Shown: positions 6,737-61,537 of the stretch, piece after piece
Layout: the number at the start of each line of letters is the position of its first letter
Position numbering within the stretch: the stretch's first letter is position 1
Origin: Eledone cirrhosa
Taxonomy: Eukaryota
DNA: 64,000 nucleotides
Assembly (NCBI GenBank): GCA_964016885.1
Contig: OZ024743.1
Location: 346,394,001-346,458,000, forward strand
Direction of reading: 5' to 3'
Notes under the pieces: model-generated
Database searches by the model: none
What the model was told of the DNA's origin: nothing
Seen by the model: only the letters and a program-made list of their open reading frames with translations
Translations under genes and position numbers: made by a program

Positions 6737-6921
6737 GTGGATTGGCAGTATCGGTAGAGGGTCGGATGCTATGCTTTGCAGCATAGTTACGTCCCTTTAC
6801 GGACTGAGTTCAAATCCCGCCGAGGTTAGCTTTGCCTTTCATTCTTACGGGGTCGATAAAATAAAGTACCAGTAATGCACAGAGTAATTGCTGGCCTTGT
6901 GCCAAAAGTAGAAACAATTAT
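6737..6921 (+). mobile_element. tRNA-derived SINE family 1, near full length
   Basis: A box tggcagtatcgg, B box gagttcaaatcc, tail gaaacaattatt; high similarity to 46351-46540. Confidence 0.95.
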
Positions 6922-8843: not shown

Positions 8844-8973
8844 AACGAAGGAGATGTGGTAAGGAACCAGGTGGACCATAACGCACCAAAGTACCCAATA
8901 CTTAGGGTAGTAGTGTGGGTAATAGGAACGAGTAAGACCCCGAAGGCCGAGCTCAAGCCGTTTCGACGGCTAA

Positions 8974-8976
<3 letters not shown>
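8844..8976 (-). mobile_element. PLE pseudo-LTR 3' fragment (family H1) carrying only the 3' half of a hammerhead, flanked by (TA)n on both sides
   Basis: Near-identical to 24444-24577; minus strand reads gccgtc-GAAA-cggcttgagctcggcc-ttc-ggggtc; stops inside the stem II strand. Confidence 0.75.
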
Positions 8977-10647: not shown

Positions 10648-10830
10648 TCAGAATGGAGGCGGTAAAAACCAGTTAGACCATTACTCACAAAAGTACTCGA
10701 AACTTGGGGTAGTAGAGTGGGTATATGACAAATACAGGACCTCGACGGCTGAGCTCCGGCTACTTCAACAGCTATATCCGAACTTGGATCTAGCTGTTGA
10801 AACGGCTGGAGTTCATCCGTCGGTGTCCTG
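10648..10830. mobile_element. PLE pseudo-LTR fragment (family H1, diverged) with fold-back palindrome 10735-10830
   Basis: Homologous to 24444-24645; arms caggacctcgacggctgagctc... / ...gaaacggctggagttcatccgtcggtgtcctg, centred near 10783. Confidence 0.8.
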
Positions 10831-10951
10831 ATTTCATGTATGTATTTATGTTTGTGTGTTTGTGTGTCTGTGTTTGTGTGTGTGTGCGTGTCAGCGCGTG
10901 ATTGTGTGCGCATGTATATGTTAAGATGAGTGTATAAATATATATGCATGC

Positions 10952-21102: not shown

Positions 21103-21147
<45 letters not shown>

Positions 21148-21191
21148 AAGTTAAATAAAAGTCAAATGATTAAAATTTAGCTTCGTTTATT

Positions 21192-21246
21192 ACTGCTATA
21201 TATATTTCAGTGACAGCCATCTTTGGCTGTGACCTCTTCAGGCAGT
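21192..21246 (-). ncRNA. Minimal type I hammerhead ribozyme (intact core)
   Basis: actgc-CTGAAGA-ggtcacagcc(aaagat)ggctgtcact-GAAA-tatata-TA-gcagt. Confidence 0.92.
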
Positions 21247-22435
21247 TTGAATTAGTATGGTATAGACAAGTACATATGTTGTTTAGGTGTATGATATTGT
21301 CAATACTCTGATATGCCCAGTTCCTTGCTGGGTTGTTAATTCACTGGGGAACTGGAGTCATATGAATTCAAACAAACGAATTTTCGTGTCACAGGTCCCC
21401 TTCTCCTCTCATTGGTCAGTTATTAGTGTTGTCATTGTTGGAGTTAGCTTAAAAATTGATAAAATGGTAGAAGGGACAAGGTGTTGAAGGAACAAAATCT
21501 CAAAAAATGTGTCAAACTTCCCATTGTTCAGTTCTGAGAGCATTCCTCAGTCAGAGTCTATAGAATTCTTTCTGGGGTGAGGCTCCCTGTGGTGTTTATG
21601 CCTGCTATTGTTCAGTACATTTGACCTCCACCATTATTTTGGTACTGTTGTTGTTGTAGTGGTCAGCTTATACCTTGCTGCTGCTAACAATTTAGAAGTA
21701 TTCAGTTTGTGTTTTCTCTTCATCCCACCCGCCACCATCGTAGTGGTGGTGACGGGTGGGGGGAGGGGGTTCTTTCATGTATATGAAGAAATATAAGGCA
21801 ATAAATGAAGAAAACAGAAGATAAATAAATAATATAATAAAATAAAATAATTAATATAATTTGTGTAATTTGAAAATAAATAAATAAATAGAGAATAAAG
21901 AATAAAGAGTAAATGAGAGATTGGTGAAAAAGTAATGATAATGTATATGGAGAAGTGAGAAATAATGTAGGATAAAGTGTGTGTGTGTGTGTGCTATAAC
22001 CAATCTCAAGGTCAGAATATGTTGGATAGATTGGTATGATACAAGATGTTAAGATGAGATATTCAATGTGTTTGTGTTATAATCTATCTCAACTTAAAAT
22101 AAATATAAGGTTATACAGTGAAGAGGGCAGAAAACAAATAACAAATTAATAAAGAGAAATCAAGATTTAAGATTGGAACTTTAAAGTCAGAAATCTGGTA
22201 AATTAAAAGTGTTTGTGTTATAGATGTTGGCCAGATTATTATGGCTGTGTCCGATTCTATCTCTAGGCTATCATGGTGTCTGCTCCGCCTGGGTTGTTCC
22301 CTATGGCTTGAGGGGAGTTCACAACCTAGGGTGTTGTAATTGTCCATATAGCTTGAGGGAGGTCTGGCCGAGAGGTGTTTTCATGTTCTGTAGAAGTCCC
22401 TATAGCTTGAGGGGAGTTCACATCTTCTTGTGTTG

Positions 22436-22900
22436 CTACTGTCCATATATTTTGAGAAAGGTCCCGGCTCTAAGGTGTCTGCATGTCCCGAAGAAGTCGG
22501 TTCTGAGGTTTATCAGGCCGCTTCCACCTCTTAGTATCTCGAGGGTCTCGTTCAGGCATAGTTTGCATATGCAAGATCCCCCTTTATCGGGTGGTACTTT
22601 CCTGATTATGTACCAGGCCAGAGAGTATGGGGTCCTGTCCAGCTTAAGCTTCCAGATCAGGTCGGAGAGAGCTGTGCTTTTCCTTTTGGCCTCCTTCTTG
22701 AATGAATGGCGATGGTTGTACCAGCGGTCCTTAAAGCTCGTTGATGTGGCTCCTATGTAGAGGTATTCGGAGTTGGGGGTTTTAACCCTACAACCGTACA
22801 CTATGTTCTTCTTGAGACATTCATTACCAAGGGGGCATGATTCGGGGTTTCTACAGTTGCAGAGGGTGGGCGGCCTCTGCGTGCTTAGATTAGGGTTCTC
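22436..22900 (-). pseudogene. PLE GIY-YIG endonuclease domain (5'-truncated ORF; CNC..CPL..C linker, tentatively Nematis-type)
   Basis: CNCRNPESCPLGNECLKKNIVYGCRVK..YIGATSTSFKDRWYNHRHSF..CKLCLNE; open reading frame but no RT. Confidence 0.92.
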
Positions 22901-23259
22901 ATTATGTGCTACATGTAGGGAGCCTCACCCCAGAAAGAATTCTATAGACTTCTGACTGAGGAATGCTCTCAGAACTGAACAATGGGAAGTTTGACACATT
23001 TTTTGATATTTTGTTCCTTCAACACCTTGTCCCTTCTACCATTTTATCAATGTTTAAGCTAACTCCAACAATGACAACACTAATAACTGACCAATGAGAG
23101 GAGAAGGGGACCTGTGACACGAAAATTCGTTTGTTTGAATTCATATGACTCCAGTTCCCCAGTGAATTAACAACCCAGCAAGGAACTGGGCATATCAGAG
23201 TATTGACAATATCATACACCTAAACAACATATGTACTTGTCTATACCATACTAATTCAA

Positions 23260-23314
23260 ACTGCCTGAAGAGGTCACAGCCAAAGATGGCTGTCACTGAA
23301 ATATATATAGCAGT
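23260..23314 (+). ncRNA. Minimal type I hammerhead ribozyme (intact core)
   Basis: Identical inverted copy of 21192-21246; stem I actgc/gcagt, palindromic stem III atatatat. Confidence 0.92.
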
Positions 23315-23455
23315 AATAAACGAAGCTAAATTTTAATCATTTGACTTTTATTTAACTTTATTTTACACTACTCCGGAGTAACCAAACCAACCTGCGCACT
23401 TCGTCGAGTGCTCCAGCCTGCATACTGAGGTGTTGGTATACAACCAACATAAACT

Positions 23456-24443: not shown

Positions 24444-24645
24444 TAACGAAGGAAATGTGGTAAGGAACCAGGTGGACCATAACGCACCAAAGTACTCAAT
24501 ACTTCGGGTAGTAGAGTGGGTAATAGGAACGAGTAGGACCCCGACAGCTGAGCTCAAGCCGTTTCGACGGCTAATTCTAGACTGAGTCCAGAATTAGCCG
24601 TCGAAACGGCTTGAGCTCAGCCGTCGGGGTCCTACTCGTTCCTAT
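24444..24645. mobile_element. PLE pseudo-LTR fragment (family H1) with 61-bp fold-back palindrome centred at 24584
   Basis: Arms 24523-24583 / 24585-24645 with 2 mismatches; the plus arm has GAAA(24603)-cggct tgagctc agccg-TC-ggggtc. Confidence 0.9.
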
Positions 24646-29478: not shown

Positions 29479-29546
<68 letters not shown>

Positions 29547-29554
29547 AAAAAAAG

Positions 29555-32216
29555 CTGAAATCGAAAATGCAACTGAGTCTTATTTTTTTAAAAATATATA
29601 TATTTATTTGGTTCTTTTACCGGTTTCGCAGTTCTTCTGCTTTTCGAAAGTAGAGTTGAGATGGAGGGTCTGTGGTTTTTCTCACATCTGGTTGGTCTTT
29701 GAATGTTACTTGTTTTATATGGAAAAAACTGGGTCGAAACGCCAGGTTTTTAGAGAAGTAATTTGATTGGTTGGTCAATAATTATGATAAATTTCGCGCC
29801 AGTTCGCGTTACAAAGTTCTTCAAGCAAGGGGGCGGCTCAGGTTGATTTTTTCATATACGAGTGTTTGAATTTCTTTTTACTTTAAAAAAAAGGGGCTCA
29901 TGAAGGCTTTTTTTAAATAAACGTAATGTGATTGGTTATAAATGAAATTATGGCTGTCACGTGAACTTCGTGCCCGTATTTGGAAATTTATTCTGTAGCC
30001 TTTTTAGAGAATTTTATGACAAGCAAAAGATAATGGTCAAGAGAAATGGAATGGGAGAATTGTTCTGGTTCAGTGAATAAGGTTAGTTCGCTGGGGTGTC
30101 AGAATTCAGATTTTCTATTGAAATAAAGAAAGTAAAGATATGTATGTTTATTTGTGTGCTTGTGTGTGTTGTGTGTGTTTGAATTTATTTTTTACTTTAA
30201 ACAAAGGGGGCTCACGAAGGCTTTTTTTTTTAAACGTAATTTGATTGGTTATAAATGAAATTATGGTTGTCACGTGGACAAGTTTTCATTAAATTTCGCG
30301 CCCGTATTTGGAAATCTATTCTGTAGCCTTTTTAGAGAATTTTATGACAAGCAAAAGATAATGGTCAAGAGGAATGGGATGGGAGAGTTGTTCTGCTTCA
30401 GTGAATATGGTTAGTTCGCTGGGGTGTCAGAATTCAGATTTTCTATTGAAATAAAGAAAGTAAAGATATGTATGTTTATTTGTGTGCGTATAGGAAGATG
30501 ATTATATTAGTAGAAATGGGGGAGGGAGTTGTGTGTGTGTGTATGGGTCTTATGTGTGTGTGCGTGTGTGGGAGTATGTTAAGTTGGAGCGAATATATAT
30601 ATTTTGTGTGTGTGTATATATGTGTTTAGGAAAGTGATTCTATTAGTAGACATGGGGGAGAGAGTTGTGTGTGTGTGGGGGTGGGTTTTTGTATGTGTGT
30701 GTATGGGTGTTATGTGTGTGTGGGAGTATGGGTAGCATGTTAAGATAAAGAGAATATATATATATTGTGTGTGTAGGAAAATGATTCCGTTAGTAGAAAT
30801 ATTTTTGAATGAACATATTTTCCTCACTTATTCGTATTTGTGCTGTTGTATTGTCAGCGCAAACGTATGTTAAGGCTTATTTAGTTCGGGTTTTTATTTT
30901 CTAAAGTAGCAGGTGTTATGTGTGTGTGTATGTGTCTGTTTTGGATGGTTCGCACGTTATGGTGTTCACATAATGTATATTAAACCATATTTATTGCTGG
31001 TCTATATTTTTTAATAAACATATTTTCCTTATTTATTCGTATTTGTTCTGTTGTATTGTCAGCGCAAAGGTAAAATGGGAAGACTTGGAATTTGGGTGTC
31101 TTATTACTTGCGCATATGTCTAGATGTACGCTTAGTGGTATATGTCTCGTGGTTGGATCTCGTAATTGTTGGCGATGAACTGTCGTTCTGTTTCTGAGTG
31201 TGAGTTTAGTTTGTCCTATATAATCTTCATTGCATCCTTTACATTTAATGGCATAAAGTAGATTTTTTGATGAGCAAAAATTTCTCCTGATTTAATATAT
31301 ACGTGTTGCCTTCAATGAGGTGAGAGGAGGTTCCACAATTAGAGCGACCACATTTTTTGACAGTTGGTTGTGGGTTTGTGGTAGGTAATTTAGCATTGGT
31401 GAGTAATGTTTTCAGTGATTTAGGTTGTCTTTTGCTTTTGATTATTTTGTGTTTCAAGGGCTTTTTTCATTCTTGGGTCTTGTTTTAGTAGTGGGATGTA
31501 CTTGTGAATAGTGTTGTAAGCTTCCGCATTTCTTGGGTTGTGTGTTGACATGTATGATAGAATATTGGACGTACCTTGAATTTGTTTCTGTTTTCGTAAT
31601 TCATCAATGTCTATTGTTTTAGCCCTTTCTATTCCATTATTTATTAGTAATGGTGGGTACTCTCTTTCTGCGTTTCATAATTGGAGACAATGGTGCAAAT
31701 TCTTCTTGCTAGGTTAAAAGGAATGTTCGTCTTCGTGTGCTTTTGATGGTTGGAGGTGAATAGCAGGTATTGTTTGGAATCTGTTGGTTTGTAGTGTATG
31801 TCAGTTTCAATATTTATGTCTTTTTTTAAGATTAAGATCTCCAGAAATGGGAGTTGATCTTGGCTGTATTCCATTGTGAATTGGATGTGGTTATTGATGC
31901 CGTTTATTAAGTTTTTGAAATCATTCAGCTGGTCGAGTGTGTGGGACCAAAGAATGAGACAATCATCCAAGTAGCGTTTCTAATTCTCTGATATATATTT
32001 GTGGAAGTTCAATCCGTATTTTAATTTGGACTGTTCATATATCTGGACTTCTAAGTATGCCATAACTAAGTTGGCATAAGTTGGAGCGGATTTTGTACCC
32101 AACGCAGTCCCCGATATTTGCTTGTAAGTACTGCCATCGAAATCAAAAAAAGTTGTTCTGTAAGATAAATTTTAATCCCACGGTGATGAAGTTTTTTTCT
32201 ATTCTGCCAGGTATCT
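29555..32216 (-). mobile_element. 5'-truncated Penelope-like element (RT + C-x4-C-x2-(C)-type linker + GIY-YIG + long 3' region + pseudo-LTR), tentatively Neptune-type
   Basis: GTALGTKSAPTYANLVMAYLE and RYLDDCLILW (RT), KKCGRSNCGT linker, YAIKCKGCNEDYIGQTK..R..HRQQ (GIY-YIG, about 31050-31260); degenerate HHR at 29614-29650; ends near (TA)n. Confidence 0.93.
29868..30490. repeat. About 313-bp tandem duplication inside the PLE 3' region
   Basis: Units start gaatttcttttt (29868) and gaatttattttt (30181) and share long identical blocks. Confidence 0.9.
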
Positions 32217-32358: not shown

Positions 32359-32413
32359 CATAGTAATAATAATACATTTGAAGACTAAAATGCCAAAAGG
32401 GCTCGATAAGGAT

Positions 32414-32654: not shown

Positions 32655-34333
32655 AATCTACCAAAATAAACGGTAGGGTTCAATCCGTATGAATAACTCA
32701 ATGTAATCCAAATATAGAAGATATCATGAAAAGAGAAAATACATTCAAAATTATAGGATAAAAATCATAGGAAAACAGAGTCAAGATAAATTAATAAAAA
32801 CAATGAAATAAAAACAAAGAACAGGTTCCTTATATTGAAAAAGTATCCTTTTACGATCGTTTCTGGCATATATATGTGTGTGTTGGTATGTATATTATAT
32901 TAAAGATGTATGTAAAAAAATATTACAAATTATCAGAGGAGATATACGCACCTTCACTTATATATGCCATCTTGAGAAATGATGAAGTACTTTTATTAAA
33001 AGAAACAAAGTATTAATACAAAAAGTCTGTTTGAGAACAGGTTTTGAATTGACCAATAGAAAAGAGTTAGAGGTCAAGTTGATAGAATAACAGTAGTAGA
33101 AACTTTATGCTAGGAGTGGAGGATTGTAAGTTTATGCTTTGAATGAAAATAATACAGTGGGGAAGAGAAAGATAGGGGTTAAAATGAGGTCAAATCAATG
33201 AGATAGAGAAAAAATTGATGTTATTAAACAATGTTGTTAAAAGTGAAGGGAAAATAATTTTTTTGTGGTATGAGAGTGTTAGTGAGAAGTACTACTCCTG
33301 TTTAATTTTCAAGGAACCTAGATACATAAAGGGAAATTAAATTAATTAATAGGTATACTTACAGAGTTAAAATTATATTAATTCTTATGAGTGTGATAAA
33401 TAAAGAAGTAAAAAAAAAATATATATATATAGAGAGAGAAAGACTGAAATAGATAACATTTTATAAAAAGTAGTGTATCTATCGAAACATCCATATTATT
33501 AAAGATATTAATTATATTCACTAATCCTAGGTATTAAATAATCCTAGGTATTAAATAATCCTAGGTATTAAATGTGATAGAAGGTGGATGCGGTTAAAAG
33601 AAGTAGTGAGGTTAAAGATAGCTTTAGGTAAAATGAGCTGCAAGAGGGAAATAAAATTATGAAATTCTTTGTAGTAAATATCTAATTATAGGTTAACTAA
33701 ATTAAAATTTTTCTTTTTTAATCTATTATAATAATTTGTAAAATATAAGAATGAGGTATATATTAATTAAGTTTATAACATTTGAAGGTTTTTCTAATTC
33801 TATGTTTGGATGATATAAATAACTCCTGTCGCTTATTTCATAGTATATCATTAGATTTCATGATTACAAATAGTTATTGGGAGCATAACCTACACTCATA
33901 TCTGCTATTTTGATAAGGGCTGGCCCTTTTGAGCACGCTCCAGGTCAGGTTGTAATCAATGTCCTTCTTTCTATAAGTATTCATTGCTTCAGCCAAGGAG
34001 GTTGTATTAGCTAATGCGGCATTTTTAAAACTATGTTTGTGGGTATTAAATCTTACTTTAAATTGTTTAGACGTAGCTCCTATATAGGATTGAGTGGAGT
34101 CCTTAGTTCTAACTACACATTTATAGACTATATTATTAATAAGACAATTTCCCTTTAATGGGCAATTTCTTTTGATTCTACAGTTACAGCCATTCGTAAA
34201 TATTGTATCAGGAGAGTTAATTGTGTTATCTATAGTGGTATTAGTGTTACTATTTTCATTAATGTATGGTTTAGAATAGGTTGTAATTATATTAGTATGA
34301 TTAGACAGGTTGTTGATGGGTGATAGTTTAGGG
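32650..34333 (-). mobile_element. 5'-truncated Penelope-like element (GIY-YIG + AT-rich 3' region + HHR-bearing end)
   Basis: GCNCRIKRNCPLKGNCLINNIVYKCVV..YIGATSKQFKVRFNTHKHSF..CRLC (ORF 33874-34446, whose N-terminus runs into the hAT end). Confidence 0.9.
32845..32983 (-). ncRNA. Degenerate hammerhead with a very long stem II insert
   Basis: tcattt-CTCAAGA-tggcatatata..(about 85 nt)..tatatatgcca-GAAA-cgatcg-TA-aaagga; core has G>C. Confidence 0.65.
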
Positions 34334-36255
34334 CAGGGGTCGGCAACCTTTTGGAGAGAGAGGGCCAAACAGCTATGCAGTCTCATGGAGGAGAGCCATG
34401 TTATTAAATATGTAAATAAATTTTCTGGAGGTTTAAAGCAAAACAAGGAATTTAATATAATTTTCTTTTAACAAGGCCCCTTATTTTACTGCATGAATAA
34501 CAAAAAAAAAAGAAAAAAAAACTACAAACACATTTAACAAAAAAAAACAAGACAAATTCCTTATTTTACTGCAGGAATAACAGAAAAACAACTACTATCA
34601 CAATCAACAAAAAAGAAAGCAAATTCCTTGCTACAAACGAAATACAGTTAGAAATGGTAAATGATTTAATGAGACTCTTGTTTCTGCTTATTGTGCGATA
34701 ACTTCTCCACATCAGTTGAAATATTTGTCGACGACAGGAGCAAAACATCATCCAGGTGGTCGTCACGCAACCTTGTTCTTAAATGACTTTTAGTATATTT
34801 CATTTTGAAAAAAAAGTTGTTCACAAGCTTATGAACTTCCAAATAATGATATCATCAGTTTCGCATTAGTCAAGATGTTTTTATATTTTCTGCTTGGCAA
34901 TATATATTTCTTGTAGAAGTCAGCAGTGTATTCGAACTGAAATTTCGATTTCAAAGATTCGACGCACTGTAAGTCAATTAACTCCAACTGATATTCTTCT
35001 GCCACTTGCTCCACATCTGTTTCGTAAGGAGTACCAAATAATTTAAATAGAGTTCCATATTGCCGGAAGTCAGCAAAACGAGAGGAAAACTCGCTTCTCA
35101 AATCCTTAATAGAGCTCACAAAGATGTCTGGTATTATATCTCTCTTGTGATTTTGGAGACTTGGGAAATGAGAGTAGTTTCCTTTTTGAAGTTGTGATTC
35201 CCACAGTCGAAGTTTTCTCTCAAAAGCAGTAATTTGACCAAACATCTCAAATACAACCTTGTTCTTTCCTTGAAGCTCAAGATTCAAAGTGTTCATGTGG
35301 GTCGTGATGTACACTAAAAAAGCTAACTTGACAACCCACTGTGGATCCTGAAAGTAAGAATTATCTTGGTCTTTGCTCTCTAAAGTCATAGAAATCTCTT
35401 CTCTCAATGCATATACTCGTTCTATCATTTTTCCGCGGCTAAGCCATCGAACATTTGAAAAATATGTAAGGTCGCCATACTCTGCTTCAATTTATTTTAG
35501 AAATTCTTGAAACTGGCGATGATTTACTCCTCTTGACAGTATAACATTCACTGTTTTCACGACCACTGCCATGATGTCCTTAAAATTCAGTGACTTTGCA
35601 CATAATGCTTCTTGATGAATAATGAAATGAAGTTTGATTAGTTTTTTTATCAATACCGATGGGGTTTTGGAGCAATGCAACACACCCCTTTTTCTCTCCA
35701 ACCATTGCTGGTGACTACTCCAGAAAGCTTTGATAAATCCAGATTCATTTTGGTAATCCATTGTATTATGCTTCCAAAATATCTGCTCCAGTGCTAGTGT
35801 CCTTCATAGGAATCAATTGTACAAATTCTTCCACAATATCAAATGTTGGTTTTACACACCTCACAAACACTGCAGGTTGACAAGTATCCTTCATATCTGT
35901 GGATCCATCGATAGCAATGGAATAATACTCCAGATTATTTAAAATGCCCTCCAAGCCACTTCTGACATTTGCTGCCAGCTCTTCAATTCGCCTTGTTACT
36001 GCCGATAAGCTGATCGCAGAAAATAATTCCTTTTTTTCTGGACAAACAACATCTGCTACATTCAACAATAATTCTTTGAAGAAATTTCCATCAGTAAAAG
36101 GTTTCATCCTTTCTCCAATTAGTTTTGACACCTCGTAGCTAGCACGAGTATTTCGGTCACTTTCTTTAACTTTTCTAGTGAAGAAGGATGATTGCTTTGT
36201 TACATTATTTCTCAGCCGTGCAACTTCGTTTACTCGGGCTTTTCCAGTAAACGAT
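34334..36255 (-). mobile_element. hAT transposon (Buster/SPIN/GTF2IRD2-like transposase), 5'-truncated and frameshifted
   Basis: TIR CAGGGGTCGGCAACC at 34334, preceded by gttTAggg (nnnTAnnn Buster-type target); motifs YYSIAIDGSTD, IIHQEALCAK, VRWLSRG, LNLELQGK, SLFGSS. Confidence 0.93.
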
Positions 36256-38493: not shown

Positions 38494-38654
38494 TTCAGAA
38501 GATCCCGCTAAGGGTGAAAGCAGCGATTCTTTGCTTAAACTTTAATTTGTTATTTTAATAAATATTTGCTCTACGGTTCTTATATATTTGATATATATTT
38601 ATCCTTATCGAGCCCTCTTTGTATTTTAGCCTTCAAATGTATTATTATTATTAC

Positions 38655-40578: not shown

Positions 40579-40862
40579 CAATGGAGTGTAACGTAAAGTT
40601 ACGGTAGGTTCACCAAGGTGAGCACTCGATGTTTAGATTCATGCCTGTAACGCGGTGTTACAGTGTTAGAGCTTAACAGAGTGTAAATATTATAATACAA
40701 GGACGATATGTTATGTCTTCATTACGTTTATTAGTTGGTGACGCGCGTTTCGCTATTGATCAGCTCAAGGTTCGATCTGAATCGAATAGCGAAACGCGCG
40801 TCACCAATCAATAAACTTAATGAAGACATGATAAATCGTCCTTCTATTATTAGATTTATATA
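40577..40862. mobile_element. PLE pseudo-LTR fragment (family H3) with fold-back palindrome 40682-40860
   Basis: Both arms read gc-GAAA-cgcgcg-TC-accaa; joined through gctatt...aatagc. Confidence 0.85.
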
Positions 40863-41885: not shown

Positions 41886-41943
41886 ATAAGGGGGTAAATG
41901 ATCTAAATTCTAACGTGTTGACTTGTACTTCATTATTATGAAT

Positions 41944-42260
41944 ACGGGGTCGATAAAATAAAGTACCAGTAATGCACTGGCTAAATGCTGGCCTTGTGCC
42001 AGAAGTAGAAACAATTATTATGAAATGACTCCGGAATAAACAGATGTACTTGTATACTTCTTTGAGTGCACTATCCTGCTTACAATAGTTGTTTCTACTT
42101 TTGGCACAAGGCCAGCAATTACTCAGTGCATTACTGGTCCTTTATTTTATCGACCCCGTAAGGAGGAAAGGCAAACTTAACATTTGGCGGGATTTGAACT
42201 CAGAACATAGAAACGTAACGATGCTAGAAAGCATGGCGTTCGACTGTCTACCGATACTGC
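41944..42260. mobile_element. Two SINE family 1 copies, tail-to-tail (41944-42020 +, 42086-42260 -)
   Basis: Direct match to the family consensus. Confidence 0.9.
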
Positions 42261-42329: not shown

Positions 42330-42714
<385 letters not shown>

Positions 42715-42763
<49 letters not shown>

Positions 42764-44041
42764 AGGGTTAAAATACTGGAGTGTGTTAGAGTTAAACACC
42801 CTCTTCGTATTATAGAAATGACAGTAAAAGGTATAGCTCAATGTAGTTAAACAGAGCCGAAAAATTAACAGAGTAAAACAAAGAAGCCTTCAATACATCA
42901 AAAGTCTTTATTAGCCGACAATGTTTCGTCCTATTAAGGACTCATCAGGGCAATTAAAACAACAAGAAGTAATATCGGCAGATACAAGCCGGAAGCTCCG
43001 AAGAATATGGAGTGTACATACACTGAAGTATTACAAAAATATATAATAAAAATATATGATAAAAATTACTAAGGATGTATATAACACTAAGAACCATATT
43101 ACAAATATAGTCCAAAGCAAAAACTAGAGCTAAACAAAGGTGGTTATATAGAGCAGGAATTATATATAATACAATATAACATACTATAATATACCTTTAC
43201 CAACATTAAAATTACAATAAAAATCAAAAGATACAATATGCATATGTATATATGTGCGCACACGTACACACACACATACACATACAACAATACACACATC
43301 CATCCTCAACTGCACAAATTAAACCTTATTAAGAATTTGAATATATAAATAAGCATGATAGGAATGAAAATAATAATAATAATAATACTAATACATCTAC
43401 CCAATATACATGAGGTAATAATATGATATAATTATAAGTAGTACATAGGTAATAATATGATATAATTATAAGTAACACATATAATAATAAATAATACAAT
43501 TATATACTATATAATACAATATAATAGAATAGATAATCTCCGGTTAATTTACACAAACAATATAGATGTCACAATAATAATATAATAATAATATTTACAA
43601 TATACAATATACTAACATTCTAAATGTACTCAAGTTAACAAGTCAATTCATACTGGGTTGCAGAGTAGGTGAGGAAAAATAAAATGTACAATACCTCAAA
43701 AGAATTTTGATGATACAGAAGTACAAACATCTTACAAGATATATAAGGTTTAACATATCATAATGTTACATATAATTAACGGTAAGTAATAAGGATCAAT
43801 ATTACAATAAAAAATACAATATAATATAATATAATATATAAAATAAAATTAATACAATATAATATAATTACTTATAATTACAAGGTTGGTAGACAGACAT
43901 GTACATGGATGAGTGAGTAAGTGCCAGACAGTAAATATAATCATATATCGGCTCTGTTTAACTACATTGAGCTATACCTTTTACTGTCATTTCTATAATA
44001 CGAAGAGGGTGTTTAACTCTAACACACTCCAGTATTTTAAC

Positions 44042-44081
<40 letters not shown>

Positions 44082-44099: not shown

Positions 44100-44469
44100 G
44101 TAAGTAAAAAAAGGGGGGAGGAGAAGAAAAAAGGAACAAAACATAAAACCTAGATGTCAAAACACGGATATAAAGACACATACACATACGCATACATATA
44201 TACATACACATAAATATATATACATATATATATATACTGACATACAGATACATTTGCCCTTAATTATATATTTACGCACACTTTTTCACTATACGTATAC
44301 ATATGTGCATACACATATATGCACATCTGCGAGCGTATATACATACATATACACACACCTAACTATATTTCTTGAAAGATTATTATATATTTCATATTCT
44401 AATTCATTTGTCTATATCTTTTTTTTGATTTTCTTGACGAGACTTTCCAAGTATTTACCCATGTTTTAT

Positions 44470-44547
44470 ATTGCCTCGTCTGACGAACGAATGAAGACGT
44501 TTCTTTCGTATTCGCCTCATTCGGGAAACCTCTGGTAATGAGGTAAT
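44470..44547 (+). ncRNA. Type I hammerhead with intact core and long stems
   Basis: attgcctcgt-CTGACGA-acgaatga..tcattcgg-GAAA-cc(tct)gg-TA-atgaggtaat; 10-bp stem I; A.G mismatch at the base of stem II. Confidence 0.8.
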
Positions 44548-44659
44548 TATATTGTATTGATTTTTATACATTATATATATATATATATATATATATTTAT
44601 TAAAATAACAGATTAAAGTTTAAGCAAAGAATCGCTGCTTTCACCCTTAACATATAGAC

Positions 44660-44690
<31 letters not shown>

Positions 44691-44692
<2 letters not shown>

Positions 44693-44842
44693 ATATAGAA
44701 ATGGCTTCTACAGGACTAGAACTGTTTCACTCGAAGGAAACTGTTCTCGTCCTGTAGAAGATATTTCTCTATTAAATATTTATACTCTGCTATGTATAGA
44801 GTACCTTAATTACTGTGGTTACTCCTGATTGATCCCGGGATA
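44691..44842. mobile_element. PLE pseudo-LTR fragment (family H4) with fold-back palindrome 44691-44774
   Basis: The arms read GAAA-cagttctagtcctg-TA-gaag (one arm slightly diverged); an unfolded relative with CTGATGA is at 61463-61520. Confidence 0.8.
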
Positions 44843-45544: not shown

Positions 45545-46350
45545 AGATAGATATATGTGTGTGTGTGTATAAAATCGTGATTTCTGACTGTCGAGTCATC
45601 GATACACTGTCAGATAACCAACAGTGAGTTCAGAAGTTTATATCTTTTTACAGACACTCCCATATATATTTACGTCTAATTGTAAATAGATATTAGTATC
45701 ATAGTAGTGAAATTTGGAATGATCGTATTACTCAGTGGACTACCTAAAAATATACCATCTCTCATTTGGAGCAACCTATCCTCGGTCACTCAAACTGCTA
45801 GATATAGCAGCCACATATCCTTCAACCCACAAGATATTCTGTTTAAAACATAGACACGGTAGATTATTTTTTCTAACAAAGGCATCGATCTAATAATTTG
45901 TTGGGGTCGTTTAGGCAATTACATTTTCGCCAGTATATGACTAGTACTTTATTATCGAGTTTAGATTTGGACTCAGCACACAGTGAGCCGAAATCAATTG
46001 AGCTTGGTCATTTGTCTGACACCTTCTATCGCATCTACACCCTCGTCAATTTAGATAATGTAATCAAAGGTTTTTTTTCCAAAGCTGTACATATATCAGC
46101 ATTAATAGTTTCCAACTGAACAGAAATGTGTAAATTGGTTTGTATAGGATTGTTATCTCTTAGCAAAAGGAGGAGATTAAGGAGTTGATACTCATTTACA
46201 CACACTTGCATTCATTCAGCTATTCACTCATTCATCATCGGGATTTAAAATAACGATGTGGTTGTAGTAGTGGTGTTCTCGCATACCGAGTAACTTATGC
46301 ATTTCAACCTAGTGTAGCCAATCCCTCTCATTATTTGACAATAGACAAAA

Positions 46351-46540
46351 GGCGGTGGATTGGCAGTATCGGTAGAGGGTCGGACGCCATGCTTTCCAGC
46401 ATAGTTACGTCCCTTTACGATCTGAGTTCAAATGCCGCCGAGGTTGACTTTGCCTTTCATCCTTACGGTGGTCGATAAAATAAAGTACCAGTAATACACT
46501 GGGTAATTGCTGGCCTTGTGCCTAAAGTAGAAACAATTAT
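46351..46540 (+). mobile_element. Full-length SINE family 1 with 17-bp TSD
   Basis: A box tggcagtatcgg, B box gagttcaaatgcc; TSD attatttgacaatagac at 46330-46346 and 46536-46552. Confidence 0.97.
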
Positions 46541-46733
46541 TTGACAATAGACTATTACTTCCAGAGAACTAATGGAGAGAGTTAAAGAACTTTCGATAAA
46601 AGAATTGACTCCAACATTGACGTAGTTTATTCATCGACCTCTAACACACACTCACATACTAACAATTGCATCATCAGTGCAGAGATAATTTTCATCAACA
46701 CCTCAACCACCGACACTTACATCAACGTCATCG

Positions 46734-53220: not shown

Positions 53221-53362
53221 ATCAGTTCGGATCGAGCTGTCGAAACGGCAAGAGCTCAGCCGTCGGGGTCCTGAATTTGTTCATATTACCCACTATACTA
53301 CCCCCAGTATGGAGTACTCTGATGCGTTATGGTCCACCTGGTATCTTACCACACCCACTTTG

Positions 53363-54137: not shown

Positions 54138-54375
54138 AAAAAAGGAATGATAGGTGATACATGTAGTTATTTGCCAAATAGCGTATGCAGAAGGTGCTCA
54201 ATACTAGTGCCGGCAATATTATATATTAGAAGTGTTAATATCTAGTGGGCGAGAGAGTTAGCAGAGCGTAAGCACGTGGAAAAGTAAGAAATCGGAGAAC
54301 AGACCGTTAATACATGTTTATTTTAAATAAACATATATTAACGGTCTGTTCTCCGATTTCTTACTTTTCCACATG
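54134..54375. mobile_element. Microsatellite-flanked fragment (family H5) with fold-back palindrome 54273-54375
   Basis: 51-bp arms centred at 54324 with 2 mismatches; the arms read TAAA-catg-TA-ttaacgg (HHR-half-like). Confidence 0.75.
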
Positions 54376-54785: not shown

Positions 54786-54841
54786 ACTGCCTGAGGAGGT
54801 CATAGCCATTCAATGGTTATCATCGAAATATATATAGCAGT
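54786..54841 (+). ncRNA. Minimal type I hammerhead ribozyme (intact core) in a solo pseudo-LTR fragment of about 165 bp (54723-54887) between (TA)n tracts
   Basis: actgc-CTGAGGA-ggtcatagccatt(c)aatggttatcatc-GAAA-tatata-TA-gcagt. Confidence 0.92.
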
Positions 54842-54886: not shown

Positions 54887-55025
<139 letters not shown>

Positions 55026-55229
55026 ATAATAATAAATTTGAAGACTAAAATCCAAAGAGGGCTCGATAAGGATAAATATATATCAAATATCAAAGAACCG
55101 TAGAGCAAATATTTCTTAAAATAATAGATTAAAGTTTAAGCAAAGAATCGCTGCTTTCACCCTTAACGGGATCTTCTGAACCTCTATAATATATATATAT
55201 TAATATATACATATATATTAATATGTAAA

Positions 55230-58117: not shown

Positions 58118-59257
58118 TGGTCTTCTGGTTATATTATTTTGTAAACTTCCACCATTTCAGAGAGTGCCGGTCCCTAACTTAGAAACAAGATTCTTTCATT
58201 GGAATTTAGTCAACATCAACTAGGTATATACGTATGTATATCTGTATATGATTAAATGTATGTGCAGGAATGCATGTGGATAAGTATTTTCTTTTCAGTT
58301 ATATAAGTATATTTTTTTTAGTTACATATGTTTCTGTATCTATGCATGTCTATATGCAGCTATTACATGCTGAGTTTCTGAAATGTTTTACACAATTTTA
58401 CAGTTCCATTAATGGACTGTATTTTCATCTTCCTCACTAGTCGTGCTCTTTCTAGTTCCGTGAAGCCCATCTATGTATGTATGATATCTCTTTCTCTTAA
58501 TTTCGAGTATATTTTTTTGCCCGGCCACCTTCCTGGTGGCAAGGTTGTAAAAGAAAAGAAATTGTCATCCCTTGAATCGCAAGAATGTTTTGCAAATTTT
58601 GAAGGTGCCAGCTATCGCAGCCATTTGTAGACTATGAATTAGGGAGCTGCGCTTTTTGTCCGCAAATCCAAGTTCAGTCATACTTTGGTCCAAGCGGGTT
58701 GGTATATAACTCGTAGCTCCAATAATGATGGGTATGAAGGCTATCTTGGATACTGGATTTGTAAACTCCTCATCAATGGTCCGTATATGTCCTCCTTGTC
58801 CTGTATTTTTCTGACAACGTTTACATCAAGTGGGCAGCTGATCTCCACAACAGAACTCGTTTTCAATGTGTAGTCCCAAACAACAATATCAGGCCGGTTG
58901 TGCTTTAATTTAGTGGCAGTTTTTATTTTCAGGTTCCACCAGTATTCCTTAGTGCCATCTGTCTCAATATATTCTTCCTCGTTTGTTGTTAATTTTGTTT
59001 ACCGAAATGCGTTCCAGATGGTTCTAGCTATCCCATCGTGTCTCATGGGGAGGTAGTAGCGAGATGACATTCTTTCGCAGCTGGCAACAATGTGGCTTAC
59101 ATCCTCGATCTTTGTTTTACATAGCCTACATTTATTGTCAGCTGATCGCCCTCCCCTTTTGTGCAGCAGATATTTGGTAGGGAGTTCTTGTTCCTGTATT
59201 GCATAGAGATATGCCTCAAGGTGTGATGTCATAAACTTGTCGAAACTCCATGCCAGA
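58118..59257 (-). mobile_element. R4/Dong-clade non-LTR retrotransposon 3' fragment (CCHC + RLE + 3' UTR)
   Basis: AIQEQEL..CRLCKTKIEDVSHIVASC..YLPMRHD..KHNRPDIVVWD..VEISCP. Confidence 0.9.
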
Positions 59258-59404
59258 TGTATGTATGTATGCATGTATGTATGTATGTATGTATGTATGT
59301 ATGTATGTATGTATGTATGTATGTATGTATGTATGTGTGTATGTATGTATGTATGTATGTATGTATGTATGTATGTGTGTATGTGTGTGTGTATGTATGC
59401 ATGC

Positions 59405-60742
59405 ATTTTCTACTAGTTTCATTATTTTATAAATTTTTACCAATACAGAGATAGCCGGTTTCTACCATAGACACAAGACTCTTTTATTGGAATTTAGACA
59501 TCAACTAAGTAAATATGTATGTATGTCTGCTAGCGTGTGAGTGTTCGTTCATGTGTATGTGTATGTGTTATTACTGAGGCAGTGTATGTGTTATTACAGT
59601 GCCCCAATAATTACAGGCATAAATCTGAAGGTGTAGTCAGGGTGGTGTATCTGTAGATTCCTCATTAGTTCTGTATAGATGTTCTCCTTTTCGCTGACTT
59701 CCACTACTTTGCATGTCTTCTTTTCTCTGTCCCATATAACTATATCTGGTCTGTTATGCTTGCATTTAGTTTGGGGTTTTGATTGAAATATTCCACCTGT
59801 ACTCTTTCTTATTATGTCTTCTACATTACCATAGCTTTTAATATGTTTATTGCCAGGGCTATCTTTTCTATAGATTGTAAGGCAGAGTGGTTTGGCTACT
59901 ATATCGTACCTCATCGGTAGATATTACCATGATGACATTTTGTCACATCTAGTTGTTTTGCCTGCATCCCTATCTCTATTGCGAGTCAGGTATTTTGTAT
60001 TGATTTCTTGATCTTGGATTTCAAAAGCTTACCATTCAAATTGAGAGCCAATATGGCGGTTGTAGGTCCAATATAGACTACTTTCCTTTACTATATTACT
60101 CTCAATTTGGAACCCCATGGCAACATATCCATTCATAATTCTTTTGCTGATAAACATGCAGCTTTTCGTCCATGGTTTCACTGCGGTATTGCTGTCCAAT
60201 TTCCCCGGGTGAGTTTTTGATTATCATACAGGGATTATTTCTCAAGGAGCTGCTTCCAAACTCTCATGATCTTAACTGGCTCCTGTAGAGAGACTTGCTC
60301 AGTAGATGAGCTCCTACGCTTGATTGTTCATAACTGTTGACAGAGGGATGTGATGCGATACTCAAATGCAGTCTGCACTGATATTAGGTCTCTGCGTCCC
60401 TGTTTACGTTTCTGGTAGAGGCAGTATATGTCACTGTAGATGTGAAAATTTCCGGTGTTTTTTAAAGATTTATCGAGTTTAATCATCGGATTTCATCTAT
60501 CGTCCAATCGAGTATTCCGAATATTGGTATTAGGACAAACACAGCAAACCCTCTCTGACCCACTGTTTTATTGAGTGCAGAGAATTCAGATGACCCTATT
60601 TTCGATAATATGGTGTAATAAACACTGGTTAGGCGTTCCTTGTTACAAATACTATCATAAGATATATTCTCATATATTCCTAGGTATCTGTAGGAGTTCT
60701 CTTGACATATCCCTGAAATAGTTAGGCCATTGATAAGAATGT
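59405..60742 (-). mobile_element. Second R4/Dong-clade fragment (end of RT to RLE + 3' UTR)
   Basis: SYRYLGI, FGILDWT..EI, MRYDIVAK, KHNRPDIVIWD..PVIIGAL; 3' UTR homologous to 58125-58250; (ATAC)n on both sides. Confidence 0.9.
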
Positions 60743-61462
60743 TGTATGTATGTATGTATGTATGTATGTATGTATGTATGTATGTATGTATGTATGTATG
60801 CATGTATGTATGTATATTAGTATGTATGTATGTGTGCTTGCATGGATGGATGTATACTTAATCAGATTAAGCTCTTATTCATTGCAGATTTAATGCGAAT
60901 ACTTAATTTAATGGGGTGGCTTTGCTTACATGAGAAGATTTTTTTTAGAAATATTTTAATAATAAATGAAAGGTTAAATTGATACTATTGGTTTTTCTCG
61001 ATGCCGTTTTGTATGTAACTAGTGTGTAGTTTTAAGGTAATATAGGGTGCGACAATTTCTATATACACAAGTGTAATCCTTTGCAAAACATTTAAGTATT
61101 TATAATTTTTACAATTCTGTGTCGAGTAATCAGTGCTGTCAATGTCCAATCTTCATAATAATTCGTCCCATCCAGCAGTAAAGGCAAACATTAAAATGAC
61201 GATGAAAAAATGAATTTTGTTGTTGATGAAATTAAATAAGATGGTGACGAATACGAGAGTGACAATGGCGAAATTGACGTTCATAATGCTGATCTTCAGA
61301 GGACCCCCCCCCTCTCACTCTCTCTGTATCTATCTATCTATCACTTTCTCTATCTCTCTCCCTCACTCTCTCTCTATATATAGGCATATATATATATATA
61401 TATATGTGTGTGTGCGTGTATATGTTTATCCTGGGTTCATACCACCATATTAATTGACAGTC

Positions 61463-61507
61463 GGCTTCCTGATGATTTCTCAAAACAGTTCTAGTCGTGT
61501 AGAAGCC
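61463..61507 (+). ncRNA. Degenerate hammerhead (family H4; stem II mostly deleted)
   Basis: ggcttc-CTGATGA-tttctc-AAAA-cagttctagtcgtg-TA-gaagcc. Confidence 0.6.
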
Positions 61508-61537
61508 ATTTCTATATTAAATTAAATATATATATAA

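Follow-up and report, generated by a model that had tools for sequence, protein, structure and literature searches.

The locus at 44691-44839 of the window, which here means the whole 64-kb stretch of DNA that was analysed, is a short near-perfect palindrome with an extension on one side. Its features, and those of a related locus near 61 kb, are collected in Table 1. The two arms were found to pair at 33 of 38 positions around a centre at 44732/44733, with 8 nt between them, while the top pairing in a shuffle control (200 shuffles, repeat-masked window) was 26/38. The palindrome folds as RNA with -40.5 kcal/mol (z = -9.4), a stability equalled by none of 200 shuffles. On each arm the centre sits 4 nt 5' of hammerhead position G12, that is, between A9 and G12, and G12 is a G in both arms. 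The distance from G12 to the tail-less end is 36-44 nt, as for a decayed hammerhead near the 3' end of an element. The arms differ at 5 of the 38 positions, and all five differences are private to the right arm and disrupt Watson-Crick pairing. On the minus strand, the left arm has a complete 4-bp helix III with all 4 pairs; the right arm has one helix III mismatch, and its stem I strand is altered at two positions. The earlier note had described a palindrome of two like halves. The 8-nt spacer that it quoted was found, but the helix III that it quoted is present in the left arm only.

The right arm runs 65 nt beyond the palindrome, and the left arm stops at a TA repeat. (TA)n or other simple repeats flank both the palindrome and the related locus, and no target-site duplication is readable in these simple-repeat flanks. 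The 65-nt extension is called a tail by analogy, because no second copy of it is present within the 64-kb window. The palindrome itself occurs once in the window, and its sole relative there is unfolded. An exact 24-nt scan of a prokaryotic genome collection gave 0 matches, and a local Rfam scan of the palindrome returned no hammerhead.

Table 1. Features of the palindromic locus and of the related locus near 61 kb (positions in the window).
Feature	Position	Strand	Basis
(TA)n-rich microsatellite, likely left insertion target	44660..44690	.	sequence
Left arm, tail-less: G12-A15, helix III of 4 bp closed by an 8-nt loop, cleavage site UA, 3' strand of stem I and a short 3' end	44691..44728	-	36/38 identical to 61482-61519
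Spacer with the symmetry centre; neither strand with a 5' core	44729..44736	.	8 nt
Candidate natural helix II: 4 pairs (one G-U) and tetraloop	44725..44736	+	forced fold +0.7 kcal/mol
Right arm, second hammerhead 3' half, holding all 5 arm-to-arm differences	44737..44774	+	arm comparison
Extension of one arm, 65 nt; candidate Penelope 'tail'	44775..44839	+	inferred by analogy
Sibling sequence 5' of the ribozyme, beginning at a microsatellite	61425..61462	+	without other copy in window
Sibling 5' strand of stem I (61463-61468), then the 5' core, intact (61469-61475)	61463..61475	+	stem I pairing, core match
Sibling helix II remnant, 6 nt, stemless	61476..61481	+	sequence
Sibling 3' half: G12 lost and helix III broken at one pair; 3' strand of stem I at 61502-61507; tail-less, ending at (TA)n	61482..61519	+	arm comparison

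The related locus gives the arms their identity. The segment 61463-61519 is 36/38 identical to the left arm and 31/38 identical to the right arm, and it carries the 5' core CUGANGA together with the two strands of stem I, which form 6 Watson-Crick pairs, in agreement with the earlier note. The word made of stem I and core occurred once in 111,416 positions, and about 1e-6 occurrences would be expected within 60 nt of a shared arm. Because a sibling of the same family keeps the 5' core and the 6-bp stem I beside the shared arm, the palindrome arms are hammerhead 3' halves. The earlier note had proposed both this identity and the family relationship, and both hold. It had also called the 61-kb locus the unfolded parent, a label that does not fit. 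At this locus the 3' core GAAA is broken by an A in place of G12 (61482), one inner pair of helix III is broken (61497), and the gap from A9 to G12 is only 6 nt with 0 helix II pairs; the UA cleavage site is present. The lost G12, the broken pair and the short gap do not appear in the earlier note. The sibling and the tail-less left arm end at nearly the same place. The best reading of 61425-61519 is a decayed sibling insertion of about 100 nt, 5'-truncated and lying between microsatellites: a separate, longer and dead copy, and not the donor. If hammerheads with so short a helix II occur naturally, its 6 nt may be less decayed than we read them; a review (PMC6765202) was found to have no passage on stem II. 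An Rfam scan of the sibling at E<=10 gave 15 hits with no hammerhead among them. Its score of 5 in our hammerhead census was also reached by shuffles, 1-6 times each, and therefore its identity rests on homology and stem I. Family membership in the window amounts to three arms, two in the palindrome and one in the sibling, none of them in tandem.

Where the centre falls was judged from the alignment of the two loci. The earlier note had expected a centre within stem II. By position, the centre does lie in the slot between A9 and G12, but helix II itself was not recoverable from the sibling, which fixes the centre by position only because it has itself lost most of helix II. Colinear comparison of the spacer with the sibling bases upstream of G12 gave 0/4 and 1/6 matches, on either strand. 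The four bases after the sibling core (61476-61479) equal the first 4 nt of 44725-44736 (chance about 0.006, post hoc), and these same 4 nt are the complement of the GAAA of the left arm. On the plus strand, 44725-44736 can be read as a helix of 4 pairs capped by a tetraloop, immediately preceding the GAAA of the right arm, with the centre at the border between the loop and the 3' strand. The energy of this candidate helix II is +0.7 kcal/mol, compared with -3.0 to -11.8 kcal/mol for six helix II folds in five other families of the window, and the minus-strand reading of the spacer, a 3-bp helix at +1.4 kcal/mol, is almost as good. Two or three small gaps must be opened in the sibling before it fits the spacer, whichever strand is used, and under the helix II reading these gaps would stand for a loss of 6 of 17 nt. 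In addition, the candidate helix could mispair with the core. The placement of the centre in stem II is plausible, not proven, because the helix is unstable and the minus-strand reading almost as good; it is a post hoc reading of a weak 4-bp helix, not a consensus. A different origin, in which the spacer arose by slipped copying of the bases at and near G12, was set aside as a post hoc idea that cannot be told apart from the helix II reading; the match is 6 nt when the sibling core is read as consensus (chance 0.006) and 3 nt as the sibling stands (0.73).

These results are best explained if 44691-44839 is one very short Penelope-like (PLE) insertion in (TA)n, consisting of two 5'-truncated copies placed head to head, one of them tailed, and joined in helix II; we give this reading a probability of roughly three in four. 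The clade is probably the TA-targeting Hydra clade. Within the window the palindrome family has no linked ORF for an RT or a nuclease, both copies being too short, and PLE membership is for this reason something we infer. Two Hydra-type nuclease ORFs are present in the window, neither linked to the family. The layout of simple repeat, tail-less arm, centre and tailed arm recurs in other families of the window, with extensions of 80-108 nt. In this proposal, the GIY-YIG nuclease of the element would cut the TA repeat, and reverse transcription would begin at the element 3' end from two start sites, giving a tailed and a tail-less arm. Synthesis would halt after 40-110 nt, inside helix II of the ribozyme, and the two ends would join through 4-nt complementarity, a step suggested by the complementarity of the GAAA core with the bases after the 5' core. 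Annealing of two target-primed cDNAs appears to be the best fit, since it would explain both the tailed/tail-less pair and the presence of all five differences on one arm; fold-back of a single cDNA would lead to the same centre, and the 5:0 asymmetry is weak (p = 0.06), and weaker if two adjacent changes are one event. The 5' core and the 5' strand of stem I would never have been copied, and, judged from sequence, the product would be no ribozyme but a decaying 38-bp hairpin that cannot self-cleave. According to the earlier note, the core had been replaced by the inversion; both arms, however, end at the element 3' end, one of them tailed, in a TA repeat, which points to 5' truncation and joining.

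Four other origins were considered. The palindrome could belong to a palindromic non-autonomous element, in which one old fold-back spreads as a unit, driven by a PLE or in the manner of a MITE. Two members of the family represented at 24526, 10730, 8845 and 53235 are palindromic, and the copies at 10730 and 53235 have a common apex sequence, as such spreading would produce. The palindrome studied here, however, is single in 64 kb with an unfolded copy as its only relative, and a one-sided extension and ribozyme-derived arms are marks of a PLE and not terminal inverted repeats, so that we regard unit mobility as unlikely. A MITE or other non-autonomous DNA transposon was rejected for the window on its one copy, its asymmetric ends and its unfolded relative. 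Somewhat less probable again is a DNA event after insertion, either a template switch in replication or a repair fold-back, that made a longer single copy palindromic and removed the core, as implied in the earlier note. Such an event would suit an inverted duplication that is almost perfect, has a short spacer and lies next to unstable TA repeats, but the shorter arm ends where the unfolded sibling ends, with no run-on into tail or flank, and a tailed/tail-less or head-to-head layout is common to five other loci. The stable 38-bp fold (z = -9.4) and hits to miRNA families of up to 30.4 bits would agree with a selected host hairpin RNA, such as a pre-miRNA or a source of endo-siRNA. We consider this very improbable: all the miRNA hits are far under the gathering scores (best 30.4 versus 63), all five arm differences break Watson-Crick pairing, and the repeat already explains the origin. 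Least credible of all is a fold-back artefact of assembly or library, to which short palindromes near TA repeats are prone, as the arms differ at 5/38 positions and only one is extended, where a read fold-back would be identical.

The preferred reading, a PLE insertion joined head to head, was compared with the other hammerhead-bearing junctions of the window. After masking, 13 self-inverted elements were obtained, and 5 of the 13 contain a GAAA-helix III-UH half, against a background of 1-4% per random arm. Head-to-head junctions bearing hammerheads number six, namely five palindromes and the long inverted element at 21141. The distance from G12 to G12 is 8 nt at the 44691 locus, 37 at 24526, 32 at 10730, 39 at 40686, 65 at 42448 and 2089 at 21141. 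Four of the six junctions, from three families, fall in the A9-G12 slot, one does so by one arm, and one lies 381 nt away. No 5' core with stem I is kept at 44691, 24526, 10730 or 40686, and no unfolded parent of the last three is present in the window. At 42448, one arm begins exactly at G10.1 and the other keeps the core, a judgement based on the unfolded copy at 29544-29679. The inverted arm of the 21141 element begins at an unrelated 10-bp palindrome, 381 nt away from G12, and thus other hairpins serve too. Among 15 solo copies tallied by hand in the window, three end 9-19 nt 5' of G12 (G12 at 8964, 53242 and 44642), ten keep the 5' core or a remnant of it, and two start 3' of G12. The copy with G12 at 44642 ends in loop II, and its family has two unfolded copies in the window; it is a cleaner case of helix II truncation than the pair of palindrome and sibling. 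These counts include two junctions of one family, short spacers were favoured, and core-less solo copies are visible only if anchored by another copy. The helix II joint pattern is accordingly suggestive, but small, biased and partly non-independent. The asymmetry of spacer folds was rejected as evidence on the strand: the tailed strand was favoured in 3 of 4 slot-centred palindromes (by 0.7-4.3 kcal/mol) with one tie, 42448 was opposite, and the signal was too weak.

It is tentatively proposed, at somewhat less than even odds, that in PLE retrotransposition helix II recurrently serves as a place to stop and join, where RT halts and the complementarity of the hairpin primes or anneals the second strand. 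If true, such a hotspot would mass-produce short palindromes of ribozyme halves that are mistaken for MITEs or miRNA hairpins in annotation, and the PLE hammerhead fold would gain a role in integration apart from cleavage. If helix II is preferred genome-wide, junction positions would be a cheap test between self-priming and the annealing of two cDNAs, and in such genomes many of the short palindromes flanked by TA could be assigned to a different class. The palindrome locus itself is a dead transposon stub, of value as one data point on how inverted junctions of PLEs are made.

The families counted above are as follows. The copies at 24526-24642, 10730-10834, 8845-8975 and 53235-53353 form one family with an 80-nt tail. 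Two of them are palindromes whose centre lies 5' of GAAA, and the others are solo arms that stop 13 and 19 nt 5' of G12; a 5' core was seen in none of the family's copies in the window. At 40686-40856, two hammerhead 3' halves surround a 39-nt bulged hairpin that resembles a natural helix II, and a 108-nt tail lies on the left. The locus 42448-42661 is a head-to-head pair, with one arm from helix II and the other with the core, and 29544-29679 is its unfolded relative. Another hammerhead family is found at 44597-44650(-), 38494-38650(+), 55024-55180(-) and 32364-32413; its first copy lies 40 nt left of the palindrome and is truncated in loop II, and the two longer copies, 38494-38650 and 55024-55180, have A for U4 in the 5' core. 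The type I hammerhead at 44472-44546(+), some 150 nt left of the palindrome, looks complete: it has the top census score of 17, an 8-pair stem I, a 7-bp helix II and both cores intact, and a local Rfam scan of 44455-44570 gave no hammerhead. More type I hammerheads lie near TA repeats at 42910-42954(-), 37627(+), 53527(-) and 16406(-), the last three with one GAAA change each. Rfam, also run on the whole window (E<=10), gave 343 hits; of the best 150, nearly all were microsatellite noise, and the one hammerhead among these was 42910-42954, at 31.7 bits against a cut-off of 34.

The element at 21141-23365, with a tail to about 23460, is a classical PLE with near-identical inverted pLTRs of 415 nt and looks young. 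It has hammerheads on both arms, at 23265(+) and 21241(-), and its junction is a 10-bp palindrome centred at 22913; a diverged relative lies at 54791(+). Its GIY-YIG ORF (about 22436-22924, minus strand) matched Pfam at E = 5.5e-4, below the curated cut-off, and contains the CxCx5C, CxxC and CxH motifs, as in the TA-targeting Hydra clade; protein searches with the nuclease (22439-22924) found nothing at E<=0.001, and neither the clade nor the host is read from a database match. A second Hydra-type nuclease fragment is located at 33874-34467(-). Fragments at 34829-36254(-), which gave no Pfam match, are presumably of a hAT-like transposase, and 58999-59409(-) is a zinc-binding fragment of a LINE (zf-RVT, E = 3e-7). 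An abundant tRNA-like SINE of about 190 nt, labelled by eye from words like A and B boxes, is represented at 46348-46544, with copies at 6737, 9577, 16621, 24265, 42084 and elsewhere, and 41943-42160 is one inverted pair of SINE ends. Two further near-perfect palindromes were seen. One, at 54276-54372, is a single copy of 97 nt whose arms resemble a hammerhead 3' half without G12, and it was not scored as a half; the other, at 79-136, is 58 nt long and has neither a ribozyme motif nor microsatellite flanks. The 97-nt inverted copies at 42764-42860 and 43948-44044, 1.1 kb apart, are 100% identical with matching flanks, and represent either a recent duplication or an assembly repeat. The window as a whole is eukaryotic DNA, AT-rich and full of simple repeats, and its repeat content may point to a cephalopod host.

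Several known systems can be compared with the palindrome, as far as the available portions of the cited sources describe them. Solo PLE hammerheads (PMC4209133) also occur as scattered truncated copies. In Schistosoma, opposite-strand hammerhead pairs stand 100-700 bp apart (PMC4209133), but these are whole motifs, whereas both cores of the palindrome are cut, 8 nt apart. Non-LTR retrozymes (bioRxiv 10.64898/2026.07.22.740005; PMC7229834) are likewise short non-coding repeats with type I hammerheads derived from PLE pLTRs; they are, however, head-to-tail tandems with a whole ribozyme per unit, while the palindrome is head-to-head with none whole, and retrozyme identity was rejected, since none of the three family arms in the window is in tandem.

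The hammerheads of Hydra-clade PLEs are closer. In File S2 of PMC8557442, a U often follows the core, the same 4-bp helix III is found in four rows, and all five of the supplement rows with the Hydra nuclease motif word belong to the Hydra clade (5/5). The palindrome family shares with them a (TA)n target, the position of a type I hammerhead near the 3' end, a U that follows the 5' core and a 4-bp helix III of the same letters. It differs in a loop III of 8 nt, compared with 1-3 nt in that clade, in a helix II that is missing or weak, and in having no linked ORF. Three 10-letter motifs of the family had no match among the hammerheads in this supplement, the Hydra element of Octopus among them.

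The closest counterparts are the PLE insertions themselves, in which an inverted 5'-truncated copy lies next to the 5' end with a tail at one end (PMC8557442), and whose head-to-head junctions with palindromes were read as self-priming (PMC3846280). Both target strands are extended, two RT start sites define the tail, and insertion in vitro proceeds without need for ribozyme cleavage (PMC11167929). How the inverted junction forms is termed unresolved in PMC3846280 and is among the steps not yet validated in PMC11167929. No paper describing a PLE inverted joint in helix II was found in the literature searched, which covered sources other than subscription papers and repeat databases. As in the pLTR junctions of PMC3846280 and PMC8557442, an inverted 5'-truncated copy abuts a direct copy at a joint palindrome, with a one-sided extension, here a candidate tail, and an AT-repeat target. 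The arms here are only 38 nt and are cut inside the ribozyme, whereas the published ones are whole pLTRs of about 180-220 bp with a joint that is not tied to a hammerhead, and the extension of 65 nt exceeds the published 30-40 bp. The head-to-head arrangement is therefore known, and what may be new is the repeated use of a small stem of the ribozyme as the joint.
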